55,634 bases of DNA from a virus. Lineage: Duplodnaviria; Caudoviricetes. The notes beneath the pieces were generated by a model. It was not told the origin of the DNA, made no database searches, and saw only the letters and a list, made by a program, of their open reading frames with translations. Positions 9,919-35,045 of the stretch are shown here, in pieces. Every line of letters starts with the position of its first letter. Positions within the stretch are counted from its first letter, which is position 1. The stretch spans positions 1-55,634 of IMG/VR virus record IMGVR_UViG_3300032092_000036. One strand, given 5' to 3'. Made by a program: the position numbers and the translations under genes.

Positions 9919-10344
9919 ATGAGCGGCCACACACTTTCTGTTCTGCTTCCTGAGACAGTGGAGAGTCACTGGGCCGACTTACGTGCAATGCTTGCTCCGG
10001 GTATGGAACATTCCAATGGCGAATTTGATGTAGATGACATTTTGACCATGGTTCAGAGCCAAAGAGTCTTTATCGCTACGTACAAACAAGACGACAAGAT
10101 CAGTCTAGCCATTGTGTTTGAAATCCTCAATTACCCTAAGAAGTGCGTGTTGTACGTCTTGGCGATGGGTGGAGCAGGGTTTGACCGGCTTATGAAGTTT
10201 TGCTGGGATGCCCTTACTGAGCTAGCCTTGCTGGTAGGTGCTTCGGCAATACGGGGCGCTGTACGCCCCTCAATGGAACGGTATTGCAGGCGGGTTGCGC
10301 CTGATGCTGGAAGAATCTACACTATCTTAGAAAGAGGTGTCTAA
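9919..10344 (+). CDS. GNAT-fold-like virion assembly protein
   Basis: Sits before the internal virion genes; LNYPKKCVLYVLAMGG...GASAIRGAVR pattern. Confidence 0.55.
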   Translation: MSGHTLSVLLPETVESHWADLRAMLAPGMEHSNGEFDVDDILTMVQSQRVFIATYKQDDKISLAIVFEILNYPKKCVLYVLAMGGAGFDRLMKFCWDALTELALLVGASAIRGAVRPSMERYCRRVAPDAGRIYTILERGV

Positions 10345-11786
10345 TGGGCGGCGGTGGCGGCAATCAATACTACGCAAACTTAGAGAAGCTTTACGGTACG
10401 CAGGCTGCACAGTCTGAACGACTGATGGGGCTATCTGAGCAATATACCTATCCAATGTACGGCCGCATGGTCGATCAGTCATTGGACTACGGCTCACTGG
10501 CAAACAAAGAACGAGCAGCAGCTCAGGCAAAAGCAGATGCAGAATCCTCATTTGGTTCAGCCATGGGTGCATACAAGAGCGATTTGGCCTCTATGGGTAT
10601 TAACCCTGAGGACCCACGATACGCCAAAGAAATGCGCAAACTGGCTACTACTGCTTATGGCGGTGGCGCTGCTGGTATGAGCAGTGCTCGTGATCGTGCT
10701 GAACAAATGGGCTTTGCCCGTATGCAAGACACCACGGCTTTGCTCGCTGGTGTGCCGTCTAATGCGTCATCTGCGCTGTCAAGTACGGCTGCTACAGGTT
10801 CTAACTTAGCAAGCATGTACAACCAAGGCCAGCAAATGGCTTCTCAAAACGTGGCTGGCGCTGTGCGTGGCGGTATTGATCTATACGGCTTTAGTAAAAA
10901 CAACCCCGGCTTCTTTGGGCTTGCTGATGGCGGCCCAGTTTTAAAACTTAAAGGCGGTGGTTACGTTCAACGTCTTGCCAGAGGCGGTATTACTGGTGCA
11001 ATGGAGCAAATTACCCCTCCGCCTCCCCCAACAGGGACACCTACTCCTTCCAACGCAGGAGCTGTGGGCCAAGGCTTGATGCGCGGTCGGGATATGGTCG
11101 GCACAGGTGTTGAGTCTCTGGGTAAAGCCACTGGTAACACTAATATGGCTGCCTATGGTCAAGGTATGCGTTTGGGCAAAGACGCTCAACCTGCTATCGA
11201 TGCTTACTCACAAGCTGCTGCACAGGTAAATTCTGTCTTGCCCCCTACTGCTGAGATGGCTGCGGCTGACATTGCTACGGGCGGTCTTGGTGGTAGTACG
11301 GGCGCGGCTGCTATGACAGAAGGCATTGGCGGCGCAGCTCTTGAAGGTGTTGCTAGCTCCCTTGGCGGTGGTGCTGCACTGGGTGCTGCCATGCCTTACG
11401 TTGGCGCTGCGATGCTTGTAGGTTCTGCCCTTGGTTTATTTAGAGACGGCGGCGTTGTTAACCAGCGCCCCTACATGAGTGGTGGCGAGATCGACGGTCC
11501 GGGCGGCCCCAAAGATGATTTGATTGCTACTGAGATTCCAGAGGGCGCTTTTGTTATGCCTATCGGTGTGGTGAGAAAGCTGGGACGTAAAGCGTTGGAG
11601 AAGATGAACGAAGTCGAAGACCATTCTGCCACTAAGAAGAAGCGCAACATGGTTAAAGTTCGTGTATCGGACGACGAGTTCATCATCCAACCTGATGCGG
11701 TTGATCGCATTGGACTTGCTAAACTAGAGAAGATTCGTCAAGATGGTTTGGCGTACGAAAATAAACTTGGTATAGGAAAGCCTTAA
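10344..11786 (+). CDS. Internal virion/DNA ejection protein
   Basis: Ala/Gly-rich helical protein with a hydrophobic stretch; repeated xxGG motifs and GPGGPKDDLI...EGAFV module. Confidence 0.7.
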   Translation: MGGGGGNQYYANLEKLYGTQAAQSERLMGLSEQYTYPMYGRMVDQSLDYGSLANKERAAAQAKADAESSFGSAMGAYKSDLASMGINPEDPRYAKEMRKLATTAYGGGAAGMSSARDRAEQMGFARMQDTTALLAGVPSNASSALSSTAATGSNLASMYNQGQQMASQNVAGAVRGGIDLYGFSKNNPGFFGLADGGPVLKLKGGGYVQRLARGGITGAMEQITPPPPPTGTPTPSNAGAVGQGLMRGRDMVGTGVESLGKATGNTNMAAYGQGMRLGKDAQPAIDAYSQAAAQVNSVLPPTAEMAAADIATGGLGGSTGAAAMTEGIGGAALEGVASSLGGGAALGAAMPYVGAAMLVGSALGLFRDGGVVNQRPYMSGGEIDGPGGPKDDLIATEIPEGAFVMPIGVVRKLGRKALEKMNEVEDHSATKKKRNMVKVRVSDDEFIIQPDAVDRIGLAKLEKIRQDGLAYENKLGIGKP

Positions 11787-12040: not shown

Positions 12041-13273
12041 ATGGCCAATATCATGGGTCTTTTGGGTGGTCTTGGCCAAGGTATTTCTTCCGGGGTGCAA
12101 AGCCTCGAACGCATGGACGAGGCCAAGAACCGCAAAGAAGAAGCGCAGTTCCGTAAAGAACTCCAACAGCGTGAGCGTGAGCGTCTTGCAGAAGAAAAAC
12201 GTGTAGGTGAGCAGATTAAAGGCATTCAAGCTGAAATGCCTCCTGAGTACGATGCGTCCATGTCGGCCATTACCCAGCCCGCGCAAAAGCTCTCTCGCGC
12301 TCAAATGTTGGCACGCCAAGCAGAAATCTATTCTGCGTCTCCTGATCGAGCAAACCAGCAACTAGGTTTGCAGTTAGCCAACGCAGCTCGCGCCGAAACA
12401 AACGCTGAAAAACTGCAGGCTATTCAAACTGGCTATGCCGACACACTCAAAGCCATTAATACTGATCCCAACAAGTGGGTGCAAGAGAATCTGGCTAAGT
12501 TCAACGCTGATGAATATGGCGGCCCCGGTACTAAGGGCGTTATTGCGGCTCCTATGAGCACACCTCAGGGTACTGTATTGAATGTCATGGGCCCTCAAGG
12601 TCAACAGCTTCAGCAAATTCCTGTTACTCGGCAAGACATGATGCGGGTGGCTAAATCCATGTACTTCGATGAACTGTCTGGAATAAGCCCCGAATACGCT
12701 AAGCTTGCCATGGATCAAGAGCGCCTTGGTTTAGAGCGTGAAGGTCTTGGTCTGAAACGACAGGCTAACGAATCAGATGCCGAATACAGAAGACGTATGG
12801 CTGCTGCCAGCGAACGCGAATTAGACACTAAAATCAAAAGTGGGTATTTTAATAAAGCTCCTGAGCGTTTTAGTCCTCTTGGTTTGAGTGACGATGCGAC
12901 TCGTATGCTGGGCGTCCGTGGCGGCTCTCTTGCTGAGATGCCTATTCCTGCTGGTTACTCTGAGGGAGCATTCCCTAAGATTGCCAAAAAAGGTACAAAA
13001 CCTACGCCTGCCAAAATCATGACAGATCAAGAAGGCAACACAGTTGCTTACGGCGTAGACGGTCGTCCAATGTACAACATTGTTGGTGGCGGTTTAGAAG
13101 TGCCACTAGGCGTTACAAGTTCGGATTACAACCGCATGGTCAAAGAATCTCGTACAGCTAAGATTCCCATGGAAGTTGGTTCAGTGGATGGTAAACCAGT
13201 CATTGCGTATAAAGGCAAAGATGGCAACTATTACAGTACACTCGACGAAGCTAAAAAAGCCAAAGCCAAATAA
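12041..13273 (+). CDS. Internal virion protein (coiled coil)
   Basis: MANIMGLLGGLGQG N-terminus followed by charged coiled coils; typical second ejection protein. Confidence 0.65.
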   Translation: MANIMGLLGGLGQGISSGVQSLERMDEAKNRKEEAQFRKELQQRERERLAEEKRVGEQIKGIQAEMPPEYDASMSAITQPAQKLSRAQMLARQAEIYSASPDRANQQLGLQLANAARAETNAEKLQAIQTGYADTLKAINTDPNKWVQENLAKFNADEYGGPGTKGVIAAPMSTPQGTVLNVMGPQGQQLQQIPVTRQDMMRVAKSMYFDELSGISPEYAKLAMDQERLGLEREGLGLKRQANESDAEYRRRMAAASERELDTKIKSGYFNKAPERFSPLGLSDDATRMLGVRGGSLAEMPIPAGYSEGAFPKIAKKGTKPTPAKIMTDQEGNTVAYGVDGRPMYNIVGGGLEVPLGVTSSDYNRMVKESRTAKIPMEVGSVDGKPVIAYKGKDGNYYSTLDEAKKAKAK

Positions 13274-13284: not shown

Positions 13285-16200
13285 ATGCCAATCATTGAAG
13301 GGTTTACTCCTTCCGGTAGATCGCAGAATGAAGCGCCCCGTGCGCTTGAAGGTTTTACATCGGTCTACAAAGTTCCCATGCGCGGTGGCGACGATGCCTC
13401 TGGCATGCGAAATCCGTTACAGTTTTTGAACGACACCGTTGTCACCACGGTCAACTCCGGTCTTGGCATTATCAAAGGCGTCAGCGATTTTGTTTCGGTG
13501 GACAATCCGCTTTCAAAGGGTCTGGAATACATTATCAAAGAGGGTGAAGAAACTTACAGCCCTCAAGTTAAACAAGCGGAAGAAGAGCTTGGTCAAGCCA
13601 TGGATGAAGGCGGCTTTGAAGCCGTCAAAGGTGTTGGCAAATACGTTCTATCGTCTCCGGTGCAGACTGCGGCCAAGATTGTTGGTGGCATAGGCCCTAT
13701 CGGTAAAGGCATTCAGGCTAGCAGGTATGCAGCGCAGGCTTTAAAGTTTACCCCTCGCGGTCAAGGTATTGCCGGCGTTTCTGCCGGTGCTACGTTGGGT
13801 GGAGCCGCCGCTGGCGGTGATGCTGCTTCTGATGCTTATAGCCAAGTGATGAACAGCCCCAATGTACCGGAAGATCAGCGAGAGGCTATGGCTCGCCAAG
13901 CCGCACGTCAGGCATCAGTTGTTCCTGCTATCTTGGGCGGTTTGTCGGGTGCTACCGGCCTTGAAAGAATTATGTCTGGCGCTCGTGGCATTACCCGCGA
14001 AGGTGTTCGTCGCACTGCTGGTAAAGAGTTCCTTACAGAAGGTATTGAAGAAGGCGGCACAAAAGCTTCTGCCAATATTGCTGCAATGCAATATGATCCC
14101 ACGATTGACCCAATGCGCGGTGTTGTGGGTGCAACTACTCTTGGCGGCATCATGGGCGCTGGCGGTGGTGCTGGCGTTGCGTATCTAAACAACCGTGCTT
14201 ATGAGTCCAATATCCTTGGCACGGCTAATCCATCAGCTGACCAAAGTTTGATGCTCGGCATCAACAAGGGTGCGGGTCTGTCTACACAGGAATTGATTAA
14301 CGTCAAAACGGGTGTTACTCCTGCGGCTACTAAAGCCCAGCGCGCTGCACGCGAAGCAGATATTAAAGCAGCTCTAAGTGAGCCATCCGGTCGTTATGTC
14401 ACCGATGAGAATGGCATTGAGCGCGAACTCACCATGGGTGAAGCCGCATCCCTTGGCTATGAGACTCCTGCACTGGGAGCACTTACATCTGCTGAAGCGC
14501 CATCTGGTGAGACAACATCTCAAGTTATTGCTGACGACCTGCAAGCTGCGGCTTCTAAAGTTGGTATTAGTTTAGTAAGTAGGGGTAAACCCGTACAAAA
14601 ACGTATTGATGCGTTTACCAAAGCTGTTGATTTACTTGGCAGTGGTGCTATTGATAAAGCTACATTTGACCAGACCATAGAGCAGTTGAAGAAAAATCGA
14701 TATGCTGAGATCAACAAATCTTTTGCACAGATTGAAGCTGACTTCCAAGAAAAGCAGCGTCTAGCTAATCAGCCTAAATTCCAACGGGCTCCAAAACCAG
14801 AGGATCAAAATGTCAGCACTGATATTTCCGCTACAGGAGGACTTGCACCGAGCGTGGATGCTGGGGGCGTTGACGTATCAGGAGGCTTGGCAGCTACAGG
14901 ATCAGCTCTTAATGTCGGACCCAGCAGCGATGTGGGTTCCCGTGTCGCAGGAATTAGCCCCGCAGGTAATGAAACTTCACTTCTCGGAAATGTTACCGGT
15001 AAATCACCTACCACTTTAACACTACGCGCTGGTGCGCCAGCTTCGGGCATGGCTCAGACTTCTTTGGAAGATCAATTAGCCATTGGGGAATTAACAGGTA
15101 ACGCTGCAGAAGCGCAAGCACTGACTGAGGAAGAAGCCGGCCAGCGCATGGACGTGACCGACACTGATGAATCCAGAGCGCAAGACATTAACGCTATCTT
15201 AGACAAAGCGTTTGAGAATTCTGAGGACAAAGCTCGTGACATTGAAATTGCCAAGATGTACCTCGAGGTTATGAAAAATGCCCCGCAAGGCTTCAAACAG
15301 AAAATTCAAACTGCCATCGGCAAAGAGTTTGGTGTAAAAGCCGGCGCGGTTCGTAAGATTGGTCAAACGCCTGCTCTCGTAGACGCCGCTGTATCCATGG
15401 GTATGACAAGGCAGCAAGCCCTTGATCTTTTGGAGATCAGTGATACTTCTAAAAATAAAGTTAGCACGACTGCTGGAGAGCAAGCAGGCGGCCTTGAGAC
15501 TGTGGCTACAGAACTTGGCGTTGATTTCCAAGAAAATGATTCTATTGGTTTTGGATACGACGATACCCGCACATGGTCTCAGAGCGTAAAAGGCGCTGGC
15601 GATACTGTCAACGCGACAGACGAAGCCATGGCCAACGCTATCTACACCATCTCGGAAAAAATTAGAAGTGTTGATGCGCTCGCAGACAAACTTCCGGCCA
15701 TTGCGGGAACTCTGCGTGAAATGAAAGCCAAACTTGAAGAGACTTTGGTAAAAACTATGCAAAACGTTGCAGGTCGGCTAAAACCCGGCAGCAAACCAAC
15801 GCCTAGAAAAACAAAAGCAAAAGAGGTTGTGGAAGACGAGACTAAGCTTTTGACAGATGAACAGGTAGCCTTGAACAAACAGCAGGAAGCTCGTCAAGCC
15901 GCTCGTGCCGCTAGTCGTAAAGGTTTGGAAGTTGGCGACACAGTACAGAATCCAAAGTTAGGTACAGGCACGGTTCAAAGCTTTTCCGGTGACGGCGACG
16001 CTACCATGGCAAAGATTGCTTTTCAAAGCGGTCAAACAAAAGACTTGATGCTGTCTGCAGCAAAGTTAGAAAAGATTGCTAGTGCGCCTGTCACTGAGAA
16101 AGCTCCGATCGCCGAAACGACAACGCCTAAGAAAACTAAGGCGGGTAAAACAAAGGCGCAGGTCACAGGTCGTGACGTGTGGGAAAATCTACAGAAAGAC

Positions 16201-19200
16201 ACTCCCGGTCTTGGCGACTATGACGGTTTGTCTAAGAGGGAAAAAGACTATGTAGAAGAAGTGGCTGCCCGCACCAACGGCGACTTTACTTTGGTATCTG
16301 AGCCTTCCATGGAAGTGGTAATTGATAACCACATAAACGAAGAGCAGACGGAAGACATTTACACGGAAGACTTTGAAGCTGATGACGGCACAGCCCGCTA
16401 TATGCGATCAGCTACTAGCCAAGAGTGGAAAGACAACGACGGCAAAACATTTAAAACGCAGCCAACTACTCTTGCCAATTTAAGTAAGTATCCCGGTGTT
16501 CTTAAGGGGTTAAAGCATCTTCAAGAGGCTGGCCTTATTTCAACAGCGCAAAACATTGATACGTGGTTAATCACTGATGCCAAAGTTCCATGGACCGGTA
16601 TGCACATGTTGGTCGACGGTAAAGATACTATTATTTTTACTCAGGCCGCTCTTGATGATGTCAAACTATCATTTGTCACGCTGACCCACGAGATTGGCCA
16701 TAGTGTTGACGAAGCCGGCCTTGCAGGAACAGGCATCTACTCAAGTGCTCCAGAATTAAATTTAACATTTAAGAATGGAAACTTAAAAGCTATTGGCCCT
16801 GTAACCCGAGAATTGGTAAATCATTTTCTAAGCGATCAAGATTCTCCTCTATCTGAACAACTGCAGTATCCCCTTGTCGATAATGACGGGTTAACGGCAG
16901 ACAATATGCGTGAAGAACTTTTTGCGCAACTGTACATGTTCAGTTCGATGAAAATTGGTCGTCAATATTTACGTGACAACTTGCCGCTGACCGCGGCTTT
17001 TATGGAGAGAACACATGCAAAAATTAAAAAAACCAATGCCAGCGCCCAGCCAGCCGGTGAAGTACAAAGTGGTGAGTCAGGACAAGTTCAAGATAGGGCC
17101 CAAATTCGCGAAGTTTCTGGACGGCAACTACGAGCCAACAAAGAAAAAATCGTAAATTCTAAAGAGGCAAGAACGGTCTCTTCGGTAGTTTCAGAAACGC
17201 TAAACGCGCTGATGTTTACCGAAGACTTGTTTAAGAAGGCAGTCAAATCTGGCATCAAATCTGCCAAAGATATGATGAACATCTACCGCGAGCGCACAAA
17301 CCTCGAGGGTCAGATTCAGCGTGACGTTGAGCGTGTTGCTTCTTTGTACAACAAAATTCCTACTAACGAGCGCGGTACTGGTGACGCAAGTGCCAACAGG
17401 TTTGTCTACGACATGACCCGAGAAAAGAAGTGGGGCTTTAAACCTACGTGGCGTACTGGCCAAAGTGGGTCGGTTACGATTGATCCTGCCATGCGCAAAC
17501 GTTGGGATGGGTTGAGCCAAGAATCTCGTGACTGGACTGAGGCTGTGTTCGCCCACGGTGATGCCATGCTCAAGCTGAAAAAGCAGACATTGATGGACGC
17601 CACGAACTCTGAGTACGATTCTCTGATTAAGGGTGCGCAAGCCGCAGGCAATACAGCCAAAGTAGCTAAGTTTGAAGCTGCTAAAAAGTCTCAATTAAAG
17701 CAGTTTGCTCGCCTATTTGCAGTATCTGAGTTTGCCCCATACGCCCCCATGAAACGTTTTGGCGATCACGTTGTTGTGGCTAAATCGCAGAAATACATCA
17801 ATGCGTCTGAGGCTGAGCAAACTAAATTGCAAAACGATCCTGACCACTACCATGTAAGTTTTGCTGAGTCTAATTCATCAGCTTTTAAGTTAGAGAGTGA
17901 GTTGCGCGCCGAAGGCAGTTTTGCAAACGTAGAAACTTTTAAGAAAGAAGACGCCGGCAAAAATGGTATGTACGGTGGTTTGTTGCAAGCGTTTACTAAA
18001 TTGCGCGGTGATTTAGATTCTGAGTTAGCTAACGCGACTGATCCTGCAGAGCGTAATACTCTTGCTAAAGCCCGTGCCGTGGTAGCCGATTTGTATTTGG
18101 CATCTTTGGCTGAGAACAGTGCTCGTAAATCTGAGATGCGCCGCAAGGGTGTCGCGGGCGAGATTGATATGTTGCGCTCATTTGCCACACAGGGTCGTGC
18201 GGACGCGCAGTTCTTGGCTACTGCCAAGTACACCCCACAGATGACAGAAGCTATTAATAAGATGCGCCGTGAGGTTAAAGATGGCGGTTCTCGTTTAGAC
18301 AAGTCTCAATTGTTTAATGAGATCATGGCTCGCCACAATCAATCGTTGACGTACGATGCTTCTGTCTGGAGTGATATTGCTGCTAAGGCTAGCCGTGTTA
18401 CATCCGTTTGGTTCTTGGCTACCAGCCCCATGTATTATTTGCAGAACTTGACACAACCGCAAATGATATCAGTTCCATTTATGGCAGGTCGTCATAACTA
18501 TTTTAAAACTCAAACGGCTTTAATAAAAGCGTACACCCAGCTAGGCGGTTTAAATAAAAACAAAAAGATAGATGAGCCGTTTGACTTCAACAACGTGCCT
18601 GCGGATGTGCGCACGATGATTTCCACGTTGGTAGATCGTGGCCGTATTGATATTGGCATGGAGACCGAGCTTGGTCAATTCCAAGTTGAGGGCGAAAGCA
18701 AAGCTGCCCAAGGTATCAACAAAGTTGATCGTGTTCTGCGTTCTGTTGGTCAAAAAATGGAAGCGATTAATCGCGTATCAACTGCCATTGCTGCGTATCG
18801 CTTGGAGTTAGCTAAGACAGGCGACGTTAAGAAAGCTACTGAGTACGCCGATGAGGTGATCTCTCAGACTCACGGAGACTACACCCGCAACAATGCGCCT
18901 CGTGCGTTCAATACCAATGTGGGTAAAGTTGCACTGCAGTTCCGCAAGTTCCAGTTAATTCAGTTAACTCTGTTAACTAAGTTGGTGGCAAACTCTGTCA
19001 AAGGTGCAACTAAAGAAGAACGCGTGGCTGCTCGTACAGCATTAGCGTTTACCCTAGGTCATACTGCAGCACTGGCAGGACTTGTAGGTATGCCCGGATT
19101 TGCGGCCATTTCGTTTATTCTAAAAGGCTTGGCTGATATGTTTGGTGACGACGAAGAGCCTTACAACTTAGAAAAAGAATTGTATGAAGCCATGGTCTCG

Positions 19201-19908
19201 CAGTTTGGTGAAGATGCCGCGACGCTAATTACTCGCGGTGCGCCGGCTGCTGCAGGCGTGGACTTGTCAGGCAAGTTAGGTATGGGTAACACTTTGTCTG
19301 TCTTGCCGTTCACTGACTTTGAATTGTCTAAGGCTGGCGTGGCTGAGACAGGGTTTGCCGCGGTGTTTGGAGCTTCCGGTGCACTGGCACAACGTTTTGC
19401 CGAGGGTTTAAAGCAGATTTCCGGAGGTGAATACTATCGCGGGTTGGAAAAACTAGCACCTAAGGGTTTTTCAGATGCCATGAAAGCTGTTCGTGAAAAT
19501 GAGCAGGGCGTGACTCGTTTGAATGGTGATGTGCTTGTGCCGGCTGATGAGATTGCTGCATGGGAATCTACGGCTAAGTTCTTTGGTGTGCCAGTAACGT
19601 CTGACACCAAGCGCCGTTTCTTGACAGATATAAAGTTTGAAAACGAAAAAGCTTTTAAAGATAAAGCTGCCAAGCTGAAGAACCAATATACTAAGGCTCG
19701 CCGTGAGGGTGATGACACCACTGCCGTTCGTGAGAAGTGGGCAAAGCTTCAGGATGAGCGAGTCAGTGAAGGATTTAAACGTGAGCCATTGTCTAATCTG
19801 CTGCAAGCTCCACAGGCACAGGCTAAGCGCGAACGCGAGACAGCAGGCGGCATTCAGTTTAACAAACAGACACGTCGATTTACCGAAGAACTTGTAGGAG
19901 AACAGTGA
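13285..19908 (+). CDS. Giant polyvalent internal virion protein (HTH, Tudor-like, zincin HExxH, PLxRFG/LPD-type C-terminal region)
   Basis: 2207 aa; THEIGH...REELFAQ; YAPMKRFG; long helical C-terminus; position after other ejection genes. Confidence 0.8.
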   Translation: MPIIEGFTPSGRSQNEAPRALEGFTSVYKVPMRGGDDASGMRNPLQFLNDTVVTTVNSGLGIIKGVSDFVSVDNPLSKGLEYIIKEGEETYSPQVKQAEEELGQAMDEGGFEAVKGVGKYVLSSPVQTAAKIVGGIGPIGKGIQASRYAAQALKFTPRGQGIAGVSAGATLGGAAAGGDAASDAYSQVMNSPNVPEDQREAMARQAARQASVVPAILGGLSGATGLERIMSGARGITREGVRRTAGKEFLTEGIEEGGTKASANIAAMQYDPTIDPMRGVVGATTLGGIMGAGGGAGVAYLNNRAYESNILGTANPSADQSLMLGINKGAGLSTQELINVKTGVTPAATKAQRAAREADIKAALSEPSGRYVTDENGIERELTMGEAASLGYETPALGALTSAEAPSGETTSQVIADDLQAAASKVGISLVSRGKPVQKRIDAFTKAVDLLGSGAIDKATFDQTIEQLKKNRYAEINKSFAQIEADFQEKQRLANQPKFQRAPKPEDQNVSTDISATGGLAPSVDAGGVDVSGGLAATGSALNVGPSSDVGSRVAGISPAGNETSLLGNVTGKSPTTLTLRAGAPASGMAQTSLEDQLAIGELTGNAAEAQALTEEEAGQRMDVTDTDESRAQDINAILDKAFENSEDKARDIEIAKMYLEVMKNAPQGFKQKIQTAIGKEFGVKAGAVRKIGQTPALVDAAVSMGMTRQQALDLLEISDTSKNKVSTTAGEQAGGLETVATELGVDFQENDSIGFGYDDTRTWSQSVKGAGDTVNATDEAMANAIYTISEKIRSVDALADKLPAIAGTLREMKAKLEETLVKTMQNVAGRLKPGSKPTPRKTKAKEVVEDETKLLTDEQVALNKQQEARQAARAASRKGLEVGDTVQNPKLGTGTVQSFSGDGDATMAKIAFQSGQTKDLMLSAAKLEKIASAPVTEKAPIAETTTPKKTKAGKTKAQVTGRDVWENLQKDTPGLGDYDGLSKREKDYVEEVAARTNGDFTLVSEPSMEVVIDNHINEEQTEDIYTEDFEADDGTARYMRSATSQEWKDNDGKTFKTQPTTLANLSKYPGVLKGLKHLQEAGLISTAQNIDTWLITDAKVPWTGMHMLVDGKDTIIFTQAALDDVKLSFVTLTHEIGHSVDEAGLAGTGIYSSAPELNLTFKNGNLKAIGPVTRELVNHFLSDQDSPLSEQLQYPLVDNDGLTADNMREELFAQLYMFSSMKIGRQYLRDNLPLTAAFMERTHAKIKKTNASAQPAGEVQSGESGQVQDRAQIREVSGRQLRANKEKIVNSKEARTVSSVVSETLNALMFTEDLFKKAVKSGIKSAKDMMNIYRERTNLEGQIQRDVERVASLYNKIPTNERGTGDASANRFVYDMTREKKWGFKPTWRTGQSGSVTIDPAMRKRWDGLSQESRDWTEAVFAHGDAMLKLKKQTLMDATNSEYDSLIKGAQAAGNTAKVAKFEAAKKSQLKQFARLFAVSEFAPYAPMKRFGDHVVVAKSQKYINASEAEQTKLQNDPDHYHVSFAESNSSAFKLESELRAEGSFANVETFKKEDAGKNGMYGGLLQAFTKLRGDLDSELANATDPAERNTLAKARAVVADLYLASLAENSARKSEMRRKGVAGEIDMLRSFATQGRADAQFLATAKYTPQMTEAINKMRREVKDGGSRLDKSQLFNEIMARHNQSLTYDASVWSDIAAKASRVTSVWFLATSPMYYLQNLTQPQMISVPFMAGRHNYFKTQTALIKAYTQLGGLNKNKKIDEPFDFNNVPADVRTMISTLVDRGRIDIGMETELGQFQVEGESKAAQGINKVDRVLRSVGQKMEAINRVSTAIAAYRLELAKTGDVKKATEYADEVISQTHGDYTRNNAPRAFNTNVGKVALQFRKFQLIQLTLLTKLVANSVKGATKEERVAARTALAFTLGHTAALAGLVGMPGFAAISFILKGLADMFGDDEEPYNLEKELYEAMVSQFGEDAATLITRGAPAAAGVDLSGKLGMGNTLSVLPFTDFELSKAGVAETGFAAVFGASGALAQRFAEGLKQISGGEYYRGLEKLAPKGFSDAMKAVRENEQGVTRLNGDVLVPADEIAAWESTAKFFGVPVTSDTKRRFLTDIKFENEKAFKDKAAKLKNQYTKARREGDDTTAVREKWAKLQDERVSEGFKREPLSNLLQAPQAQAKRERETAGGIQFNKQTRRFTEELVGEQ
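14810..15019 (+). CDS. Candidate overprinted gene inside the giant gene (+1 frame)
   Basis: GAGG RBS before ATG; protein-like 69-aa sequence over a low-complexity linker of the host frame. Confidence 0.45.
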   Translation: MSALIFPLQEDLHRAWMLGALTYQEAWQLQDQLLMSDPAAMWVPVSQELAPQVMKLHFSEMLPVNHLPL

Positions 19909-20162
19909 TGGCTAAGACACCAGCATGGACACGCAAAGAGGGAAAGTCGGAAAAGGGGGGATTGAACGCCAAGGGGCGAGCCTCTTACAACGCAGCCAAT
20001 CCGGGCAAGCCGGGGCTCAAAGCTCCGCAGCCAAAGGGCGGCCCACGCCGAGACTCTTTCTGCGCTCGGATGGAAGGCATGAAGAAGAAGTTGACAAGCG
20101 AGAAGACGGCCAAAGACCCGAACTCTCGGATCAATAAATCATTACGTGCTTGGAACTGTTAA
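19905..20162 (+). CDS. Small basic protein (DUF6321-like)
   Basis: KEGKSEKGGLNAKGRASYN...RRDSFCARM...SLRAWNC. Confidence 0.75.
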   Translation: MMAKTPAWTRKEGKSEKGGLNAKGRASYNAANPGKPGLKAPQPKGGPRRDSFCARMEGMKKKLTSEKTAKDPNSRINKSLRAWNC

Positions 20163-21039: not shown

Positions 21040-21480
21040 ATGAAATACCGCGTTGTCCCTGTCGATACTCGCCAGCCTGAGGTGGTACAACTACTCGTTT
21101 GGTTGCAAAAAGCGTGTCTTCCTGCGGACAAAGTTTACCCAATTACTCATGGATACTGGTATGTCGTTTACACACAGGATGGTGAAGCTGCTGGGTTTGC
21201 TGGTATTGTTCCCTCTGCTCGTTGGTCTGATACCATGTATCTTTGTCGGGCAGGTGTTGTACTCTCTCATCGTGGACGCGGGCTTCAGAAAAAACTTATT
21301 AGGGCGCGTATTCGCAAGGCCAAAGCATTAGGTATGAATTGGATCATCTCTGATACCCATCAAAATCCTGCATCCGCGAACAGTTTGATAGCTATAGGTT
21401 TTAAAATGTTTGAGCCATCTCAACCTTGGGGTTTCAAAACAGCACTGTACTGGAAGTACAAGATTAAACATGCCGTATAA
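21040..21480 (+). CDS. GNAT-family acetyltransferase
   Basis: Acetyl-CoA motif VVLSHRGRGLQKKL, plus NPASANSLIAIGF. Confidence 0.88.
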   Translation: MKYRVVPVDTRQPEVVQLLVWLQKACLPADKVYPITHGYWYVVYTQDGEAAGFAGIVPSARWSDTMYLCRAGVVLSHRGRGLQKKLIRARIRKAKALGMNWIISDTHQNPASANSLIAIGFKMFEPSQPWGFKTALYWKYKIKHAV

Positions 21481-21850
21481 AGACCCAAAAGTTAAAGCGG
21501 AAAAACAAAAGACGTACGCAAATACGTACTATGCCAACAACAAAGCCGCCATAATCGCGGCAAGTAAAGCATCTGCCAAGGCATACAAAGATCAGTGGCG
21601 TAGCTTTAAAGCTACATTAGCGTGTGTGCAATGCGGACAAAACCATCCTGCCACATTTGACTTCCATCACGTAGACAGTAGCACCAAAGAAGCGTCTGTC
21701 AACAAGTTACTCAAAAACAGAGCCTTCAAACGGGCGATGGAAGAAGTTAAGAAGTGTGTTGTGCTTTGCGCCAACTGCCATCGCATACATCACCACAACG
21801 AACGTCAAAACAAAAAAGCCAAAAAGAAAAAAGGGGCCGAAGCCCCTTAG
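21470..21850 (+). CDS. HNH endonuclease
   Basis: MPYKDP start; CVQCG...FDFHH...CVVLCANCHRIHH. Confidence 0.85.
   Translation: MPYKDPKVKAEKQKTYANTYYANNKAAIIAASKASAKAYKDQWRSFKATLACVQCGQNHPATFDFHHVDSSTKEASVNKLLKNRAFKRAMEEVKKCVVLCANCHRIHHHNERQNKKAKKKKGAEAP
21827..21848 (-). terminator. Terminator between convergent genes
   Basis: On - strand AAGGGGC-TTCG-GCCCCTT followed by a T-run. Confidence 0.75.
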
Positions 21851-22221: not shown

Positions 22222-25188
22222 TCATACACCCACTAAAGATTCTGCGTCAACTTCTTGGTTGTGAACTAGGGTTAATGTAGGAACTGCTTCTTTGTCTATC
22301 TTGTACATGTCCACGATGATGCAGCGTTGCTGAACCGTAGGATAGTCTGTACCCTTGGTCAATGTTACCTTCTCACCCTTGGATACAAGATAGCCGCCGG
22401 CTGATAGCTTGTTCACCATGACGTTGTAGTCCGTACGGTTTTTGATACACCAGTCTCGGATTTCTTTCTGCGCAATCATCATGTGCCCTGCACAGGTTTT
22501 GTCCTTCTGCGTACCAAGAACGTAACGCCCCGCCACTTCACCAATGATTCGGCTTCGTGGTGTCTCAGGGCCACGGCCATCGCGCTTATCTCTAAACTCA
22601 TTTGTCACCAAGATACGACTGGCCAGTGAACTAACCATGCGGCTGAATGCTTCTTCGTCGGTGACTGTGTTAGACAGCATCACTGATTCTGCAAGGTCGC
22701 GTATTGTGGCAATAATGAATGTATACAAGGCATCAATGTCAAAGTCGATGATCCCCAGTTGCTTGCAGATGCGAGCCATGACAATCGTGCAGGCCGTGTG
22801 GCTACGATAGAACCGATACTTTGGACTGGGTATTTCCACAGTCAGTTGGTGCACCATGGTCTGAACTTCTTCAGCAATACGGTCATAGTTAGCCACAACG
22901 TACTTCACCATAATGTCGCCGGCAACACCAGTGTTGCGATCAAGCTCGTCTAGTGCTTGTGCAATCTCACGACTACGTGCTTCTGTATCCCCTTCAACAT
23001 TTGAGTTGGCTAAATGAGAATACCGGTCTACGCTCAACTGAATAACGCGAACCGCTTCGGCTTGTGAGTTTGCTTGATTTGACGCTAGCATGCCATGGAA
23101 ATCCATGTTGCCAGTTACAAACATATTTAACCGCCACTCGGCTGATTCAGCAAGACTGACCGTGCCGCCAGAGGATTTAAGACGCTGACGCTCTTTCCCG
23201 TTAGCTATGCCGTAAGCAATGTCGCTAATGGTGCTAGGCTCTGCTGTAGATAACTCATCTAGCAATACAGGCATGCCGCGAATCGTACCAAGCACTGCCC
23301 ACAGAGCAAGGGGTGTAAAGCCCTGCTTGCCGTTAATAGACAGCTCAGAGGGAGCACCGAACGCCGCAAGTGATGCATGGCATACCGTGGTTTTACCGCG
23401 AGCAGTATCTCCGCCATGTAGGGCAAACAGAACACCTTTGTACAAAGACTCGCACATGGGTGATAAGAGCGTACCCCATCCGGCACACAGTGCGTACTGC
23501 CAAGGCTCAGCGCCTTCGCGGTTGTAGAGGTAGTTTAGGCCACGAGCGTAGCCTTCTATCGTACCCTTTGGGATCAGGTGCTTGGCGTATCTGCGAGCGT
23601 TGCCGCCTACCAATACAGTACGGGTCGTGCCGTCCTTGCAATGCAACCTGTCACCGAGCAAGAACGATCTATCATCGCGCCAGCCAAAACTGGTCATCGT
23701 GCTAGTCTCTTCAACTTGTGCTTTCAGTGCTTTTAATTGGTCGCGTAGATATGCAGCCATGTGGGAACCTGCGTCTTTGTGGTTACTGGTATGTAGTTCA
23801 TGCTTGGCTAAAGCCCGTAGCATGTCCGTGTTAGAAGCGATTGACTCGCCGGAAATATCGAATTCACGAATCTTGTGGTTCGCCATGTGCATGCGAACGC
23901 CGTGCCGATACGTGCCGTCCTCACCGCGGATGCGGCTTGTTAGATAGAATAGATCGTGGCAGAAAGCCATTGGATGGAGTACGCCGTCTTTGTCAGGGAT
24001 CATGCGGCTCATGAGTTGACCATCCCACAAGTAGCCATTGGGCAACGCAGGAACTACAACCGTTTGAACGACACCATCTTCAGTGACGGCTTCTTTTTCT
24101 ACCTCGATAGATATAGGGATAACCCTACCTAGCACCATAGGTGTTTTAATCTTTCCCTTGAATTCACAGCCTGTACATCCGTCAGGGTTGCACTTCTCAA
24201 AGAACTCGCACAGTGTCGGAGCCATCGTCCAAGTATCTATCTTGGCCTGTGTCTCTTCGTATGTGTAGCCGGGGTAGTCTTCACTCCAGTTGTGCATTAA
24301 GGCTTCGCCGTCCGTGCAGTATTTTGCAAGGCCAGCTACACCGCGCCAGTGCTCGTATCCAATGTCACCCTTCTCAGAACGCATTGCTGCGACTTGAGAG
24401 CACTTAGTTACCATCACATCAAGGGACGTATCCACTTGTGGGAACTCCATCATCAGATCGGAATTCTTATTGCGCTCTCTAACAGGCGCATCTTTAATCA
24501 TCTTGACTTGGTTGGCCTTGACGTATACGCTTAGCTTTGCAGCAAGGTCTGACGGTTCGCATGGTTCGCATGAGGCTAGAACTTTGACTACTTTTTCTTC
24601 ACCATTCTTACGATTGATTGCGCCCGGTGGGCGCAAGATCGATGCAAAATCAGCAGTGCGGCTAGGATCGGCAATAACACCTGCGTGAGCAAGCGCCGAC
24701 TTCAGTGCAGTTGCAACCTTCACCCACGTAGCAGATTTAATATCTTTAGTCAGTGGCCAGTAGGCATGAACTCCATTGCCCGAATCTACGATGAGTGGTC
24801 GCGGCCATCCAACGTCTTTGGCAAACTTGGTAATGGCAATGACTGCATCTTTCTTGGTGAGGTATCCATCACCCTTGTCAAATTTAGCCTGTCCACAATC
24901 TAGGTCAACCCAAAATGATCGTGCGCAATCCCAGTTCTCAGGGATGCGGTATTTCTTTTTGATCGTGCCGTCAGGCTGATCTATCTCCACAGCGGGTTTG
25001 AGGTAAGCCGCACACGCATGAAAGATTTGGTAGTTTGTTTGCGACGCAGTTTCGGCGATCTTAGCCGCCATGTCTTCAAGATTAACTTGGACTCGGTGCG
25101 CAGGAAACTTGTTACCCTCTTTAAAGAGGGCGATGTAATGTATGCCGTGTTCCGGCAATATCAACTTGAGAAAATCGAGTGTGGTCAT
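22222..25188 (-). CDS. Primase-helicase (RepB/AEP-like primase, Cys cluster, DUF927 helicase region)
   Basis: FWVDLD and DSGNGVHAYW primase motifs; C..C cluster; TSFGW; GGDTARGKTT Walker A; LLDE Walker B. Confidence 0.85.
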   Translation of the reverse strand: MTTLDFLKLILPEHGIHYIALFKEGNKFPAHRVQVNLEDMAAKIAETASQTNYQIFHACAAYLKPAVEIDQPDGTIKKKYRIPENWDCARSFWVDLDCGQAKFDKGDGYLTKKDAVIAITKFAKDVGWPRPLIVDSGNGVHAYWPLTKDIKSATWVKVATALKSALAHAGVIADPSRTADFASILRPPGAINRKNGEEKVVKVLASCEPCEPSDLAAKLSVYVKANQVKMIKDAPVRERNKNSDLMMEFPQVDTSLDVMVTKCSQVAAMRSEKGDIGYEHWRGVAGLAKYCTDGEALMHNWSEDYPGYTYEETQAKIDTWTMAPTLCEFFEKCNPDGCTGCEFKGKIKTPMVLGRVIPISIEVEKEAVTEDGVVQTVVVPALPNGYLWDGQLMSRMIPDKDGVLHPMAFCHDLFYLTSRIRGEDGTYRHGVRMHMANHKIREFDISGESIASNTDMLRALAKHELHTSNHKDAGSHMAAYLRDQLKALKAQVEETSTMTSFGWRDDRSFLLGDRLHCKDGTTRTVLVGGNARRYAKHLIPKGTIEGYARGLNYLYNREGAEPWQYALCAGWGTLLSPMCESLYKGVLFALHGGDTARGKTTVCHASLAAFGAPSELSINGKQGFTPLALWAVLGTIRGMPVLLDELSTAEPSTISDIAYGIANGKERQRLKSSGGTVSLAESAEWRLNMFVTGNMDFHGMLASNQANSQAEAVRVIQLSVDRYSHLANSNVEGDTEARSREIAQALDELDRNTGVAGDIMVKYVVANYDRIAEEVQTMVHQLTVEIPSPKYRFYRSHTACTIVMARICKQLGIIDFDIDALYTFIIATIRDLAESVMLSNTVTDEEAFSRMVSSLASRILVTNEFRDKRDGRGPETPRSRIIGEVAGRYVLGTQKDKTCAGHMMIAQKEIRDWCIKNRTDYNVMVNKLSAGGYLVSKGEKVTLTKGTDYPTVQQRCIIVDMYKIDKEAVPTLTLVHNQEVDAESLVGV

Positions 25189-25189
25189 C

Positions 25190-25441
25190 TCACACTCTTT
25201 CGATAATGCTCTTCCCGGTGGCATGCGAACCAACGGTAATGGTTCGGTCTAGGTGGCTCACGACGGCGGCTTTCATCTCATCCATTTGGATGCTGTTCTT
25301 GCCAGACTCAACGATTACACGAGCGATCAATTCGGCTAAGCCAAGAATGATTTCCCCATGGTTGAAGCCCTTGCCGGATATAGCAAAGTTTGTTTCTTTA
25401 ACGACGCCGGCTACTTTCCGCGCCTCGATTGCATAGCTCAT
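25190..25441 (-). CDS. Hypothetical protein
   Basis: GGAG RBS; 83 aa. Confidence 0.75.
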   Translation of the reverse strand: MSYAIEARKVAGVVKETNFAISGKGFNHGEIILGLAELIARVIVESGKNSIQMDEMKAAVVSHLDRTITVGSHATGKSIIERV

Positions 25442-25459
25442 ATGTGCTCCAAAGTGGGT

Positions 25460-25515
25460 GGGGGTACTAGCCGCTCGTCCGCAAGCTTTAAAAGCCTTTG
25501 CACGGTTTTCCCCCC
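25460..25515 (-). ncRNA. Candidate structured RNA element with a loop-E motif
   Basis: GGGGG-GAAAA-CCG...CGG-CUAGUA-CCCCC; intergenic. Confidence 0.4.
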
Positions 25516-25523
25516 GAAATCAA

Positions 25524-26429: not shown

Positions 26430-26448
26430 TTTGTTTCCTAGGGGTTGA

Positions 26449-26832: not shown

Positions 26833-26894
26833 ATTGTTTCCTTGGGGGTATTAAATTTACGCTCGTATCGGCGCTTTGTAAATAGGGGTGAACC

Positions 26895-28651: not shown

Positions 28652-28688
28652 TGATGGTTTGTTTGAGTATCCATTCCAAGTAGGAAAG

Positions 28689-30133: not shown

Positions 30134-30186
30134 AAATTTCCAATACATTACGCCCCAACTCATGATTCAGTTGGGATCGAACTACT

Positions 30187-30215
30187 AATATAGAGGTGTG
30201 TATGTGGTTTGTCAA
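30187..30215 (-). promoter_or_regulatory. Sigma70 promoter with operator in the spacer
   Basis: TTGACA-N17-TATATT; spacer contains ACCACATACACAC, also found at 42033-42045. Confidence 0.75.
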
Positions 30216-30225
30216 CCCCGTGTTT

Positions 30226-34994: not shown

Positions 34995-35018
34995 TTATAT
35001 TTCCTTTGAGTGATTAAG

Positions 35019-35041: not shown

Positions 35042-35045
35042 GGGT

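Follow-up and report, generated by a model that had tools for sequence, protein, structure and literature searches.

A giant PLxRFG-family protein of a podovirus carries an optional UvrD/PcrA-type Tudor cassette that may dock on a host protein

Among the large proteins that podoviruses are thought to send into the host, T7 gp16 has been tied to genome entry driven by the host RNAP (PMC13434306, PMC4819975). PMC4819975 places H66 gp60 in the T7 gp16 (IVP-D) family of ejection proteins, lists H66 gp60, F116 p60, douglas 12A4 00062 and PBC5 p23 as IVP-D homologues, and describes IVPs as hosts of domains bound for the cytoplasm. Similarly, phi24B gp47, a polyvalent protein of 2811 aa with a metallopeptidase, is reported to be found in virions (bioRxiv 10.64898/2026.04.10.717836). 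Separately, the Tudor domain of the helicase PcrA contacts RNAP, and alanine substitution at any of four residues abolishes the RNAP pull-down, with His681 and Trp684 each being needed (PMC5397179). Here, we describe a phage protein in which a C-terminal domain of the first kind and a Tudor domain of the second kind are present in one polypeptide.

The window, i.e. the whole stretch of 55,634 nucleotides that was analysed (IMG/VR record IMGVR_UViG_3300032092_000036), is the ~95% complete genome of an RNAP-less podovirus, and its nearest matches in the genome collection are metagenome bins assigned to Pseudomonadota. The gene of interest is a single open ORF at 13285..19908 (+) encoding 2207 aa, which we annotate as a probable polyvalent internal-virion (ejection) protein. 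No large gene follows it in the structural operon, and it ends the plus-strand structural block, in which genes for terminase (42715), portal (44202), major capsid protein (48140) and an internal virion protein (5846-7846) are also found. The giant protein and the products of the two upstream ORFs contain no cysteine, and the replication proteins encoded in the window contain 7-22. An earlier note, made from the sequence alone, had listed five features in this ORF; the ORF and all five were recovered at the same coordinates, with the motif positions checked in the translation.

The C-terminal third provides the family link. This mainly alpha-helical PLxRFG ('tail-700') domain (aa 1485-2196; 17737..19872, +) is matched by NCBIfam NF032893 over aa 1485-2196 with 311.8 bits (cut-off 100) and is also matched in PHROG; the PLxRFG-like motif noticed earlier is indeed present as YAPMKRFG at 17740-17763, with PMKRFG at 17746-17763. 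By tblastn, it matched H66_0060 (E 6e-15), F116, douglas 12A4 and PBC5 orf23, i.e. the same genes that are listed as IVP-D homologues in PMC4819975, and the GenBank note for H66 gp60 reads 'verified by mass spectrometry as part...' of the virion. The IVP-D assignment rests on this literature and the H66 link because our own hhalign comparisons of the C-terminal family with T7 gp16 (probability 0.5%) and with the C-terminal 1100 aa of N4 gp50 (probability 0.07%) were not significant. The AF2 model of the domain has moderate confidence (pLDDT 68.5) and gave no match among PDB folds. In BFVD, this model gave 73 matches at E<=1e-3 to C-terminal pieces of proteins labelled polyvalent, methylase or SNF2, a pattern that fits a conserved delivery module combined with variable cargo. 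Of the whole protein, only aa 1914-1954 in this domain (19024..19146, +; Kyte-Doolittle 1.97) are strongly hydrophobic and transmembrane-like, and they overlap a low-confidence region of the model.

At the opposite end, a header (aa 41-330; 13405..14274, +) matches phrog_18222 at 2.7e-27, and its family profile matches aa 395-597 of Bcep22 gp75 (E 1.5e-12) with high compositional bias. This region had been described as a membrane-like Gly/Ala N-terminus. It is Gly/Ala-rich (Gly+Ala 29%), but its four Gly-rich segments have Kyte-Doolittle peaks of 1.0-1.24, below the usual value for a transmembrane helix, and the header is weakly hydrophobic.

Between the header and the C-terminal domain, three modules and a spacer are found. 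The first is a helical HTH module (aa 638-723; 15196..15453, +), apparently a divergent HTH of the sigma-70-region-4 type with a 9-aa insert, in which 15235-15366 corresponds to aa 651-694 (RDIEIAKMYL...FGVKAGAVRKIGQ). It is modelled at pLDDT 93-97 and is present in 110 of the 224 giant proteins collected. Pfam sigma-70 region 4 gave no match to this giant protein at E<=1, and the HTH profile matched nothing significantly in the PDB, with sigma-A region 4 at E ~1. Sister proteins, however, carry an HTH family of the sigma-4 type in the corresponding position, their module is related to the one here by hhalign (96.6%, E 6e-10), and two of its members (P0167 and P0190) exceed the Pfam Sigma70_r4 cut-off. 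Thus, the module appears sigma-region-4-like solely through transitive profile evidence, and the earlier sigma-4-like call is upheld by homology to the sister modules and not by a direct Pfam match. In the AF2 model, the HTH is followed by a long helical hairpin or coiled-coil spacer (aa 774-832; 15604..15780, +; helices 150-178 and 180-208 in model numbering, pLDDT ~90). Farther downstream, beyond the Tudor domain, is a zincin-like metallopeptidase (aa 1044-1254; 16414..17046, +). The proposed HEIGH...EE signature at 16687-16929 is borne out by HEIGHSVD at 16687-16710 and EELFAQ at 16912-16929. Among 11 aligned sequences, HExGHxxD and ExFAQ hardly vary. The motif also agrees with the phage-type MPTase of PMC5512222, in which an Asp lies three residues past HEXXH. 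The domain is modelled at pLDDT 96-98, and Foldseek returned lethal-factor-type zincins with a probability of 0.98-0.99 and weak E-values (0.017-0.1).

The Tudor domain (aa 878-931; 15916..16077, +) includes the segment previously called as a UvrD/PcrA-type Tudor module (15922-16077, aa 880-931). Pfam PF21196 scores 21.4 bits against the whole protein, under the cut-off of 23.9, and 28.8 bits against a 61-aa segment alone. In the PDB, a profile built from eight homologues found the C-terminal domains of UvrD/PcrA, with E-values from 1e-15 to 5e-9; two of the eight also match Pfam CarD_TRCF_RID, while the segment of the window matches PF21196 alone. A per-domain Foldseek search, one of the checks proposed in the earlier note, superposed the AF2 model on 7egs_B with a TM of 0.90 and an rmsd of 0.9 Å, and 7egs is, by its title, the UvrD Tudor crystallised on the beta lobe of E. 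coli RNAP. By profile and model, the homology of this domain to that of UvrD/PcrA is genuine, and the earlier call holds.

What the domain binds is less straightforward. Two of the four RNAP-binding residues of PcrA are replaced (His681 by Asn889 and Trp684 by Leu892), while K919 and L921 are retained at the positions of PcrA K712 and L714, as is Phe913 of the binding surface. Asn and Leu occupy the H681/W684 positions in 20 of the 33 Tudor modules examined and, as an NPKLGTG variant, in 19 of the 20 complete modules from proteins of at least 1200 aa; His and an aromatic residue are retained in nine small Tudor proteins and one giant. The ligand of the phage Tudor may therefore differ from that of the helicases, and this distinct, strongly conserved subfamily surface, together with the versatility of Tudor folds as interaction modules (PMC5397179), would be expected if the NPKLGTG variant had been re-targeted to another host protein, to a phage protein during assembly, or to nucleic acid. 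We regard such re-targeting as unlikely: Lys919, Leu921 and Phe913 belong to the same surface, the model superposes closely on the RNAP-bound UvrD domain, and a complex predicted for the Tudor and E. coli RpoB 150-450 weakly passed our mark, with a score of 0.42 against 0.00 for the best of three controls. Agreement between the three runs covers at least 97% of contacts, and the partner pLDDT is at least 85. Calibration of the mark on 80 solved complexes and 110 mismatched pairs gave 58 and 2 passes, respectively, and passes scoring <=0.60 comprise 7 of the 80 solved complexes and both passing mismatches. Moreover, a like complex (7egs) is solved, so that the pass may be memory, and E. coli is a stand-in host. 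This modelling check, also suggested earlier, thus lends weak support to RNAP binding. As a search of all six frames found no helicase-interaction motif encoded in the phage, a canonical Tudor ligand would be host-derived.

The distribution of the Tudor shows a mosaic structure. The domain sits in an optional cassette of ~95 aa, flanked on either side by Lys/Pro/Ala/Thr-rich linkers and visible as an indel in the alignment, which is present in 6/31 close homologues and 11/77 related viral loci and missing from the other 25 and 66, respectively. For instance, one of these loci (L012) encodes a C-terminal part that is 96% identical and retains HTH and zincin without the cassette. The Tudors of two other giants (P0028, P0031) are 68-73% identical to the one here and their zincin domains 31-36%, which suggests constraint on, or recent exchange of, the Tudor. 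Such sporadic spread is typical of accessory conflict modules of polyvalent proteins (PMC5512222) and would suit a decoy that acts close to the incoming genome, where it would fill the helicase-interaction hairpin of RNAP or UvrB and keep UvrD/PcrA-type helicases or excision repair off phage DNA and its transcription complexes. RNAP beta and UvrB are described as sharing the motif and competing for the PcrA C-terminal domain, and blocking the PcrA-RNAP association as raising R-loops (PMC8318588); in addition, free-standing Tudor proteins of 70-140 aa with the canonical His and aromatic residue exist in metagenomes, whether phage-encoded or not. However, the His-to-Asn and Trp-to-Leu changes speak against simple mimicry, and ejection proteins are few per virion (4 ± 1 for N4 gp50, 8:8:4 for the T7 proteins; PMC13434306), so that they cannot titrate cellular RNAP or UvrB and a local effect alone is conceivable. 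Overall, we find a decoy role quite unlikely.

The same distribution bears on the central idea of the earlier note, in which a virion-delivered recruiter, with the HTH on DNA and the Tudor on host RNAP, is required for early transcription or genome entry, as a counterpart of the N4 virion RNAP that uses the host RNAP. In its favor are the homology of the Tudor to a domain crystallised on the beta lobe, the HTH family of the sigma-4 type that sister proteins carry at the equivalent place, the co-occurrence of both modules in one protein (P0089), the N4-gp50-like layout, the weakly supportive RpoB model and T7 gp16, which recruits host RNAP according to the introduction of PMC13434306. Also, profile searches of the phage found no recognisable RNAP, in agreement with the note, and no recognisable sigma factor, leaving aside the PF00940 search, which is uninformative since this control gave no match in any genome. 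The reported lack of a sigma-70 consensus applies to the 421 bp upstream of the first minus-strand gene, and sigma-70-like sites are scarce in 32000-43000 (4 versus 14.1 ± 4.3 in shuffles). It does not extend to an intergenic gap of the minus-strand block, where an 11/12 match lies at 30215..30187 (-); a related TTGCAC-17-TACATT site precedes the structural operon, and the two sites suggest ordinary holoenzyme promoters. Because the cassette is so often absent and none of the 77 loci has a free-standing Tudor within 10 kb, sister phages manage without this domain, which contradicts the claim that the protein is needed to start early transcription or pull in the genome. The strong form is further contradicted by the Asn/Leu replacements and the 11/12 match, and the UvrD/PcrA Tudor is known, according to PMC8318588, for elongation complexes and UvrB and not for promoting initiation. 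What survives of the idea are the domain calls and an ejection-class carrier; as a required recruiter, the protein is very doubtful.

Based on these data, we suggest that the giant protein is a PLxRFG-family polyvalent ejection protein of the extended T7 gp16/IVP-D class with an accessory host-docking cassette, a joint reading to which we assign a probability of about 0.6. Its packaging, ejection and topology, and all binding partners, we infer as follows. The capsid would hold a few copies, which would leave through the tail either before the DNA or together with it. Entering the virion and contacting the envelope or inner membrane would be the task of the conserved PLxRFG domain, which has one hydrophobic hairpin, and perhaps also of the Gly-rich header, and the zincin would process the polypeptide or act on a host protein. 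The stretch from header to zincin would be a cargo slot, whose modules reach the cytoplasm; here, the cargo would consist of the sigma-region-4-type HTH, probably DNA-binding, and the optional Tudor cassette. The most likely docking site of the Tudor would be the hairpin through which a host protein, either RNAP (beta lobe/SI1) or UvrB, interacts with helicases; the entering genome or the ejectosome would thereby be tethered to the transcription or repair machinery of the host. Such docking would be accessory and fitness-enhancing, and not the basic route by which the phage starts transcription.

Several described systems share parts of this design. N4 gp50 has the same order of parts, with a likely N-terminal membrane region, cargo, a zincin-like HExxH domain (C1) and a large, mostly helical C2 described as having no structural homologues (PMC13434306), and its C-terminal domain has been put in the IVP-D family (PMC4819975). 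However, its cargo is a T7-like RNAP module in place of the HTH and Tudor, and the N-terminal regions of the two proteins are not significantly similar (BLASTP E 0.09). T7 gp16, for which we adopt the relation from the joined-HMM analysis by Hardies et al., has the same proposed role and position as a large helical ejection protein downstream of other internal virion proteins, but the protein here is without its lytic transglycosylase domain. The giants of the F116 group, i.e. H66 gp60, F116 p60 and those of douglas 12A4 (Vibrio), PBC5 (orf23; Sinorhizobium), Klebsiella LASTA and SopranoGao, have the C-terminal PLxRFG domain in common with it (tblastn E 6e-15 to 1e-45) and are likewise encoded at the end of the virion module. 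Only this C-terminal third is shared, at 22-28% identity, and they are annotated with methylase or SNF2-type ('DarB-like') cargo where the protein here has HTH, Tudor and zincin. P1 DarB, the label on phrog_10089, is likewise large, lies inside the head and is delivered together with the DNA (PMC5512222). Pfam and NCBIfam domain scans found no methyltransferase or SNF2 helicase domain in the giant protein, and the C-terminus of the 'DarB-like' Bcep22 gp75 has no similarity to it (E 0.42); thus, the DarB label names cargo that is absent here.

For the cassette, the closest relatives are the Tudors of UvrD/PcrA (7egs, 6yi2, 5dma, 9dqs), with profile E-values to 1e-15, 31-42% identity and a binding face on which Phe, Lys and Leu are retained. 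The model fits the crystal chains 7egs_B, 9dqs and 5dma with TM 0.82-0.90 and rmsd 0.9-1.5 Å, and the NMR model 6yi2 with TM 0.63. In UvrD/PcrA, the Tudor lies at the C-terminus of an SF1 helicase, whereas in the phage it is internal to a giant virion-type protein. A further parallel is provided by the RNAP-interacting Tudors of Mfd and of CarD, which stabilises open complexes and whose site on the beta lobe differs from that of UvrD. CarD binds the beta1 lobe (PMC5397179). As in the protein described here, a single polypeptide contains both a Tudor-like domain and a helical module that may bind DNA.

Our data suggest that the giant ORF at 13285..19908 (+) most likely encodes a polyvalent ejection protein of the PLxRFG/IVP-D class, i.e. 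the class of internal virion protein D (T7 gp16). The frame is open over 2207 residues, as the earlier note had read it, and all features listed in that note lie exactly where it had placed them. In this protein, a Gly-rich header is followed by a cargo slot, then by a zincin domain and finally by a C-terminal domain that is large and helical. Polyvalent proteins as described by Iyer et al. (2017) combine unrelated domains and are encoded in a late or virion-gene location; here, HTH, Tudor, zincin and PLxRFG modules are joined in one chain, and the gene lies in a portal- and terminase-encoding phage on the same strand as the virion genes. Judging solely by its relatives, the protein would be delivered into the host together with the DNA.

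The record (IMG/VR, 55,634 bp), from an uncultured phage, is estimated to be 95% complete. The plus-strand virion genes reach the end of the window and resume at its start; among the large genes of this block, the giant ORF comes last, on the same strand as terminase (42715, +), portal (44202, +), major capsid protein (48140, +) and an 'internal virion protein' (5846-7846, +). Genes for primase/helicase, helicase, DNA polymerase, HNH and ATPase proteins, together with small ORFs that fall in no family, occupy 22222-41639 on the minus strand; none of the ten minus-strand ORFs at 36307-41639, which include the small early-region ORFs, had a family match in a PHROG search (0/10). The only ORFs of more than 700 aa in the window are the giant ORF and the 1003-aa primase/helicase. 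By portal, the closest cultured phages are Rhizobium phages of the RHph_TM3_14A type (38% identity), followed by marine Roseobacter, Pelagibacter and Puniceispirillum podoviruses (about 26-28% identity), and a near-identity DNA search of phage records with the giant gene gave no match. As to the host, no tRNA was found in the window, a single-protein scan of genome contigs gave no match, and an alignment scan of genome contigs returned six loci from metagenome bins (Pseudomonadota, Silvanigrella, Thiobacillus, Dechloromonas, Anaerovoracaceae and Bacteroides) that are not decisive.

The giant protein has no cysteine in its 2207 residues and neither have the two ORFs directly upstream, while the replication proteins of the window have 7-22; the absence of cysteines would be compatible with unfolded passage through the tail and periplasm. 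The two cysteine-free neighbors are candidates for smaller ejection proteins. One (10344-11786, +, 480 aa) matches a 'virion structural protein' PHROG, and the other (12041-13273, +, 410 aa), which lies directly 5' of the giant gene, has no family match. On the other side, an 85-aa ORF (19905-20162, +) that amounts to a full DUF6321 domain (68.6 bits) has a 4-nt overlap with the giant gene at its stop codon. In PHROG families, much larger proteins end in DUF6321, and the ORF may be a C-terminal piece that has become detached or is translationally coupled. The plus-strand block ends, past the giant gene, with ORFs for a GNAT acetyltransferase (Pfam, 32.4 bits) and an HNH endonuclease (21040-21850, +).

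The class assignment is carried by the C-terminal domain. NCBIfam NF032893 ('PLxRFG domain-containing protein') matches aa 1485-2196 with 311.8 bits (curated cut-off 100 bits) over positions 2-679 of its 681, i.e. nearly the whole profile, and bears out the PLxRFG-like motif noted earlier. The motif itself reads YAPMKRFG (aa 1486-1493, +) and includes PMKRFG (aa 1488-1493) with Met in place of Leu; PYAPxKRxG is conserved across the family alignments. In tblastn against phage records, 69-72 records matched, all through the C-terminal third of the giant protein only, including Klebsiella phages LASTA and SopranoGao, Agrobacterium phage Atu_ph08, Sinorhizobium phage PBC5 (orf23), Vibrio phage douglas 12A4 and the F116 group. 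In Pseudomonas phage H66, the C-terminal part of H66_0060 matched with E 6e-15 over 82% of the PLxRFG domain, and according to the GenBank note of this gene, mass spectrometry has verified its product as a virion component. Hardies et al. (PMC4819975) count H66 gp60, F116 p60, douglas 12A4 00062 and PBC5 p23 among the T7 internal virion protein D homologues and assign the N4 gp50 C-terminal domain to IVP-D as well; in their account, such proteins carry domains that are bound for the cytoplasm, and the family link required joined HMM sets (E 8e-19). In our own hhalign comparisons, the C-terminal family had no significant match to T7 gp16 (probability 0.5%) or to the C-terminal domain of N4 gp50 (0.07%), and the step to IVP-D therefore follows PMC4819975.

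The model of aa 1291-2207, which is of moderate confidence (pLDDT 68.5), is mostly helical. In BFVD it has 73 matches at E<=1e-3, to C-terminal pieces of phage proteins that are labelled large polyvalent protein, methylase or helicase/SNF2, among them a 1416-aa protein of Vibrio phage ICP2 (2.8e-5). The only strongly hydrophobic stretch of the whole giant protein (aa 1914-1954) lies in this region. We considered a cryptic RNA polymerase in the PLxRFG domain and rejected it; no PDB fold matched (best E 0.37, probability 0.08). The label 'DarB-like antirestriction' (phrog_10089) was likewise rejected as a function, neither a methylase nor a helicase domain having been found in the giant protein. 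The C-terminus of Bcep22 gp75 is unrelated to that of the giant protein (E 0.42), and the virion proteomics of JC1 gp69 (PMC9144972) can therefore not be transferred via C-terminal homology.

Upstream of this domain, the zincin noted earlier is substantiated by motif and fold. HEIGHSVD (aa 1135-1142, +) and EELFAQ (aa 1210-1215, +) correspond to HExGHxxD and ExFAQ, which hardly vary across 11 aligned sequences. In the model, the domain (aa 1044-1254) has pLDDT 96-98 and resembles lethal-factor-type zincins (Foldseek probability 0.98-0.99 with weak E-values of 0.017-0.1). It matches the phage-type MPTase hub domain as characterized by Iyer et al. (PMC5512222), with HEXXH, a downstream Glu and an Asp three residues past the motif, for which processing of the polyvalent protein has been proposed as the role.

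Within the cargo slot, i.e. the stretch between header and zincin, the Tudor-like module (aa 880-931, +) is of the UvrD/PcrA type. With PF21196 (gathering cut-off 23.9 bits), the full protein reaches 21.4 bits and the 61-aa segment on its own 28.8 bits, and 8/8 aligned Tudor homologues match. Three NCBIfam helicase models (UvrD, PcrA) are matched solely via their last ~70 residues. When the whole 2207-aa protein was searched against PDB sequences at E<=10, the only four matches were UvrD/PcrA C-terminal domains (best E 0.015); with a profile of the eight homologues, these domains are matched at E 1e-15 to 5e-9. AlphaFold models were made for aa 625-1300 (mean pLDDT 80.7) and aa 1291-2207. In the former, the module (pLDDT about 90) has a five-stranded Tudor fold and superimposes on 7egs_B (TM 0.90, rmsd 0.9 A), a chain of the PDB entry titled 'lobe domain of E. 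coli RNA polymerase complexed with the C-terminal domain of UvrD'. Family, profile and superposition agree with the earlier reading as a UvrD/PcrA-type Tudor.

The binding face is partly altered. Sanders et al. (PMC5397179) report that H681A, W684A, K712A and L714A in PcrA each severely reduce the RNAP pull-down. In an alignment to G. stearothermophilus PcrA (5dma), these residues correspond to N889, L892, K919 and L921, and F705 corresponds to F913; therefore, two of the four alanine-sensitive residues are kept in the giant protein (K919, L921), while N889 and L892 differ. Among 33 Tudor modules (one of them truncated) from 31 collected Tudor-bearing proteins, the Asn/Leu pair occurs in 20 (19 in proteins of at least 1200 aa and one in a 530-aa protein), and His plus an aromatic residue in 12 (11 within nine proteins of 70-387 aa and one in P0057, a collected protein of 2754 aa). 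Several of the collected small proteins (P0113, P0119, P0120, P0121, P0124 and P0127 with 70-136 aa, and P0116 with 387 aa) are free-standing and consist of little beyond a canonical UvrD/PcrA-type Tudor in which the His and aromatic residues are kept. P0116 has three Tudors in tandem and several of the small proteins have acidic tails; all come from metagenomes and may or may not be phage-encoded.

The Tudor is an optional cassette. Of 31 homologues of the central region, six have it (P0002, P0003, P0004, P0028, P0031 and the truncated P0027) and 25 lack it, while the header, HTH, zincin and PLxRFG regions are otherwise common to them. In the alignment, the cassette is a clean indel of ~95 aa whose edges are Lys/Pro/Ala/Thr-rich linkers. 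In 77 related IMG/VR loci collected independently, the giant ORF has a Tudor in 11 (10/63 among ORFs uncut by the locus end), its position in uncut ORFs is constant at about residue 880-1090, and within 10 kb no locus has a Tudor other than in the giant ORF; when viral contigs were searched with only the 61-aa Tudor as query, no locus was confirmed. In one related viral locus (L012), the C-terminal part is 96% identical to that of the window's protein and HTH and zincin are kept, and yet the cassette is absent. Where present, the Tudor is far better conserved than its surroundings (73% identity vs 36% for the zincin in P0028; 68% vs 31% in P0031).

The second module of the slot is an HTH-like stretch at aa 651-694 (+), ending in FGVKAGAVRKIGQ. 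The module as a whole (aa 638-723) is found in 110 of the 224 giant proteins collected and is modelled as a compact helical bundle (pLDDT 93-97). It had been called sigma-4-like; its position is exact and it is probably homologous to region-4 modules of sister proteins, but a direct match is lacking, with no hit to Pfam Sigma70_r4 or Sigma70_r4_2 at E<=1 in the giant protein or anywhere in the window, and with structures of sigma-A region 4 (1ku3, 3n97) reached by the HTH profile at E about 1 only. A protein language-model atlas was uninformative (best score 0.76). At the same relative position, the modules of the sister proteins P0167 and P0190 pass Sigma70_r4 (30.2 and 27.8 bits, cut-off 24.1), and that of P0089, a protein that also has a Tudor, scores 23.3 bits with Sigma70_r4_2 (cut-off 25.7). 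In hhalign, the window-type and sister module families match with 96.6% probability (E 6e-10, 64 columns), and an iterative HMM search from P0167 arrives at the giant protein in round 5, at which depth profile drift is possible. On the evidence of these two comparisons, we call the module, by its sequence, a divergent sigma-region-4-type HTH. Because sigma region 2 (PF04542) is absent from the window (the control matched in 11/14 genomes), the giant protein itself is, on sequence grounds, not a sigma factor.

Could these modules recruit the host RNAP? The earlier note had proposed a virion-delivered recruiter, in part because it saw no phage RNAP. Indeed, none is detectable in the window; the search for a T7-type RNAP (PF00940) gave no match but is uninformative alone, its control having matched in no genome, and no polymerase-like fold was found among the PDB matches of the models of aa 625-1300 and aa 1291-2207. 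At the level of domains, the proposal is partly supported. The closest relatives of the Tudor bind the beta lobe/SI1 hairpin of RNAP and, through the same motif, UvrB (PMC8318588). The helicase-interaction motif, as a strict or a loose pattern, is present in none of the six frames of the phage, so that a canonical ligand would have to come from the host. A predicted complex of the Tudor with E. coli RpoB 150-450 passed the mark, with a score of 0.42 ('weak support') vs 0.00 for the best of three controls, a pass that may reflect memory of the solved like complex 7egs and in which E. coli is a stand-in host. The three runs agree in at least 97% of contacts, with partner pLDDT of at least 85. 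In the calibration, 58 of 80 solved complexes passed this mark, as did 2 of 110 mismatched pairs; among the passes, scores of 0.60 or lower came from only 7 of the 80 solved complexes and from both passing mismatches.

The strong form of the proposal, in which the giant protein is an essential recruiter of RNAP, is not supported. The cassette is sporadically distributed, two RNAP-binding residues are replaced, and sigma-70-type promoters are present. The absence of a sigma70 consensus upstream of the early minus-strand genes, as stated earlier, is correct for the 421 bp upstream of the first of these genes, but an 11/12 match (TTGACA-17-TATATT) lies at 30215..30187 (-) in a 62-bp intergenic gap ahead of the ORF at 29477-30163 (-). 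Ahead of the RHH/terminase operon, at about 42021-42053 (+), there is a related sigma-70-like site (TTGCAC-17-TACATT), and the 17-nt spacers of the two sites, containing CCACATACACAC, are almost identical. The ACATACACACGT core has a further copy at 41988-42001; with up to three mismatches, the 14-mer occurs 12 times vs 4.3 +/- 2.1 expected. Sigma-70-like sites are not enriched overall (4 vs 14.1 +/- 4.3 expected; 11 vs 14.5 +/- 4.4), and the consensus may not be that of the host.

Two copies of a 39-nt element (40304-40342 and 40880-40918; 82% identical) lie directly upstream of small minus-strand ORFs, and in each, TATTAATCC comes after a short TAGGG...CCCTA hairpin. Several TTGGAT(A/T)AAT / GGATTAATCC repeats occupy the 150-bp gap between the copies (40762-40911), and all of these look like early-region operators or promoters. 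Just upstream of the putative small terminase gene, a 58-aa ORF (42062-42238, +) resembles ribbon-helix-helix (CopG-type) proteins, with a Pfam RHH_1 score of 19.7 bits just below the cut-off of 20.5.

How, then, might the modules act? A Tudor acting as a global decoy is unlikely because ejection proteins come in few copies per virion (PMC13434306); a local tether or targeting role fits better. In the most far-reaching reading, which we give a probability of roughly one in eight, HTH, coiled coil and Tudor would make up a CarD-like tether anchored in the ejectosome. Fixed by the PLxRFG domain to the cytoplasmic mouth of the DNA channel, this tether would grip the leading phage DNA and the beta lobe of the host RNAP, and host transcription would then take over genome internalisation and early expression.

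The carrier protein is of a known kind, while the Tudor cassette and the sigma-4-type module in a fixed slot appear to be undescribed in the literature searched. There, no paper was found that describes a Tudor module for any phage ejection, internal-virion or polyvalent protein; 'Tudor' is absent from the main text of Iyer et al., whose supplementary domain lists may include it, and the only Tudor-containing match was a paper on the BREX defence system in which the term 'polyvalent protein' occurs once. The interval between header and zincin is a hot spot for the swapping of host-derived interaction modules, with Tudor, two types of HTH and, in relatives, ART and ParB-type domains that are not always within the slot: the ART domain of P0190 lies past its zincin-like region, i.e. 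outside the slot, and in P0036, another Tudor-bearing protein, a ParB-type domain directly follows the Tudor. How podoviruses that have no virion polymerase hand over their genome to host transcription is poorly understood, and even for T7 gp16 the link to RNAP is indirect. The giant-protein family supplies natural, closely related ejection proteins with and without the cassette, and the cassette is a recognisable copy of a domain whose complex with the RNAP beta lobe has been solved. Thus, a concrete test is possible of whether an ejected protein touches host RNAP or UvrB and whether the phage benefits.

N4 gp50 is among the closest known systems. Direct sequence comparison gave BLASTP E 0.09 between the N-termini and a compositionally biased, weak match of the family HMM to gp50 (best-domain E 3e-4, score 8.7, bias 27.1). 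The order of parts in the giant protein parallels the description of gp50, in which a membrane-associated N-terminal domain comes first, then the RNAP, a HExxH-bearing C1 domain and finally a C2 domain that is helical and without structural relatives (PMC13434306). Where gp50 has its RNAP, the cargo slot of the giant protein has an HTH and, optionally, a Tudor. If the tether were true, the giant protein would serve the same function as the N4 virion RNAP, but through modules that bind the host RNAP, with a swappable cassette carried by roughly one in six phages of the family.
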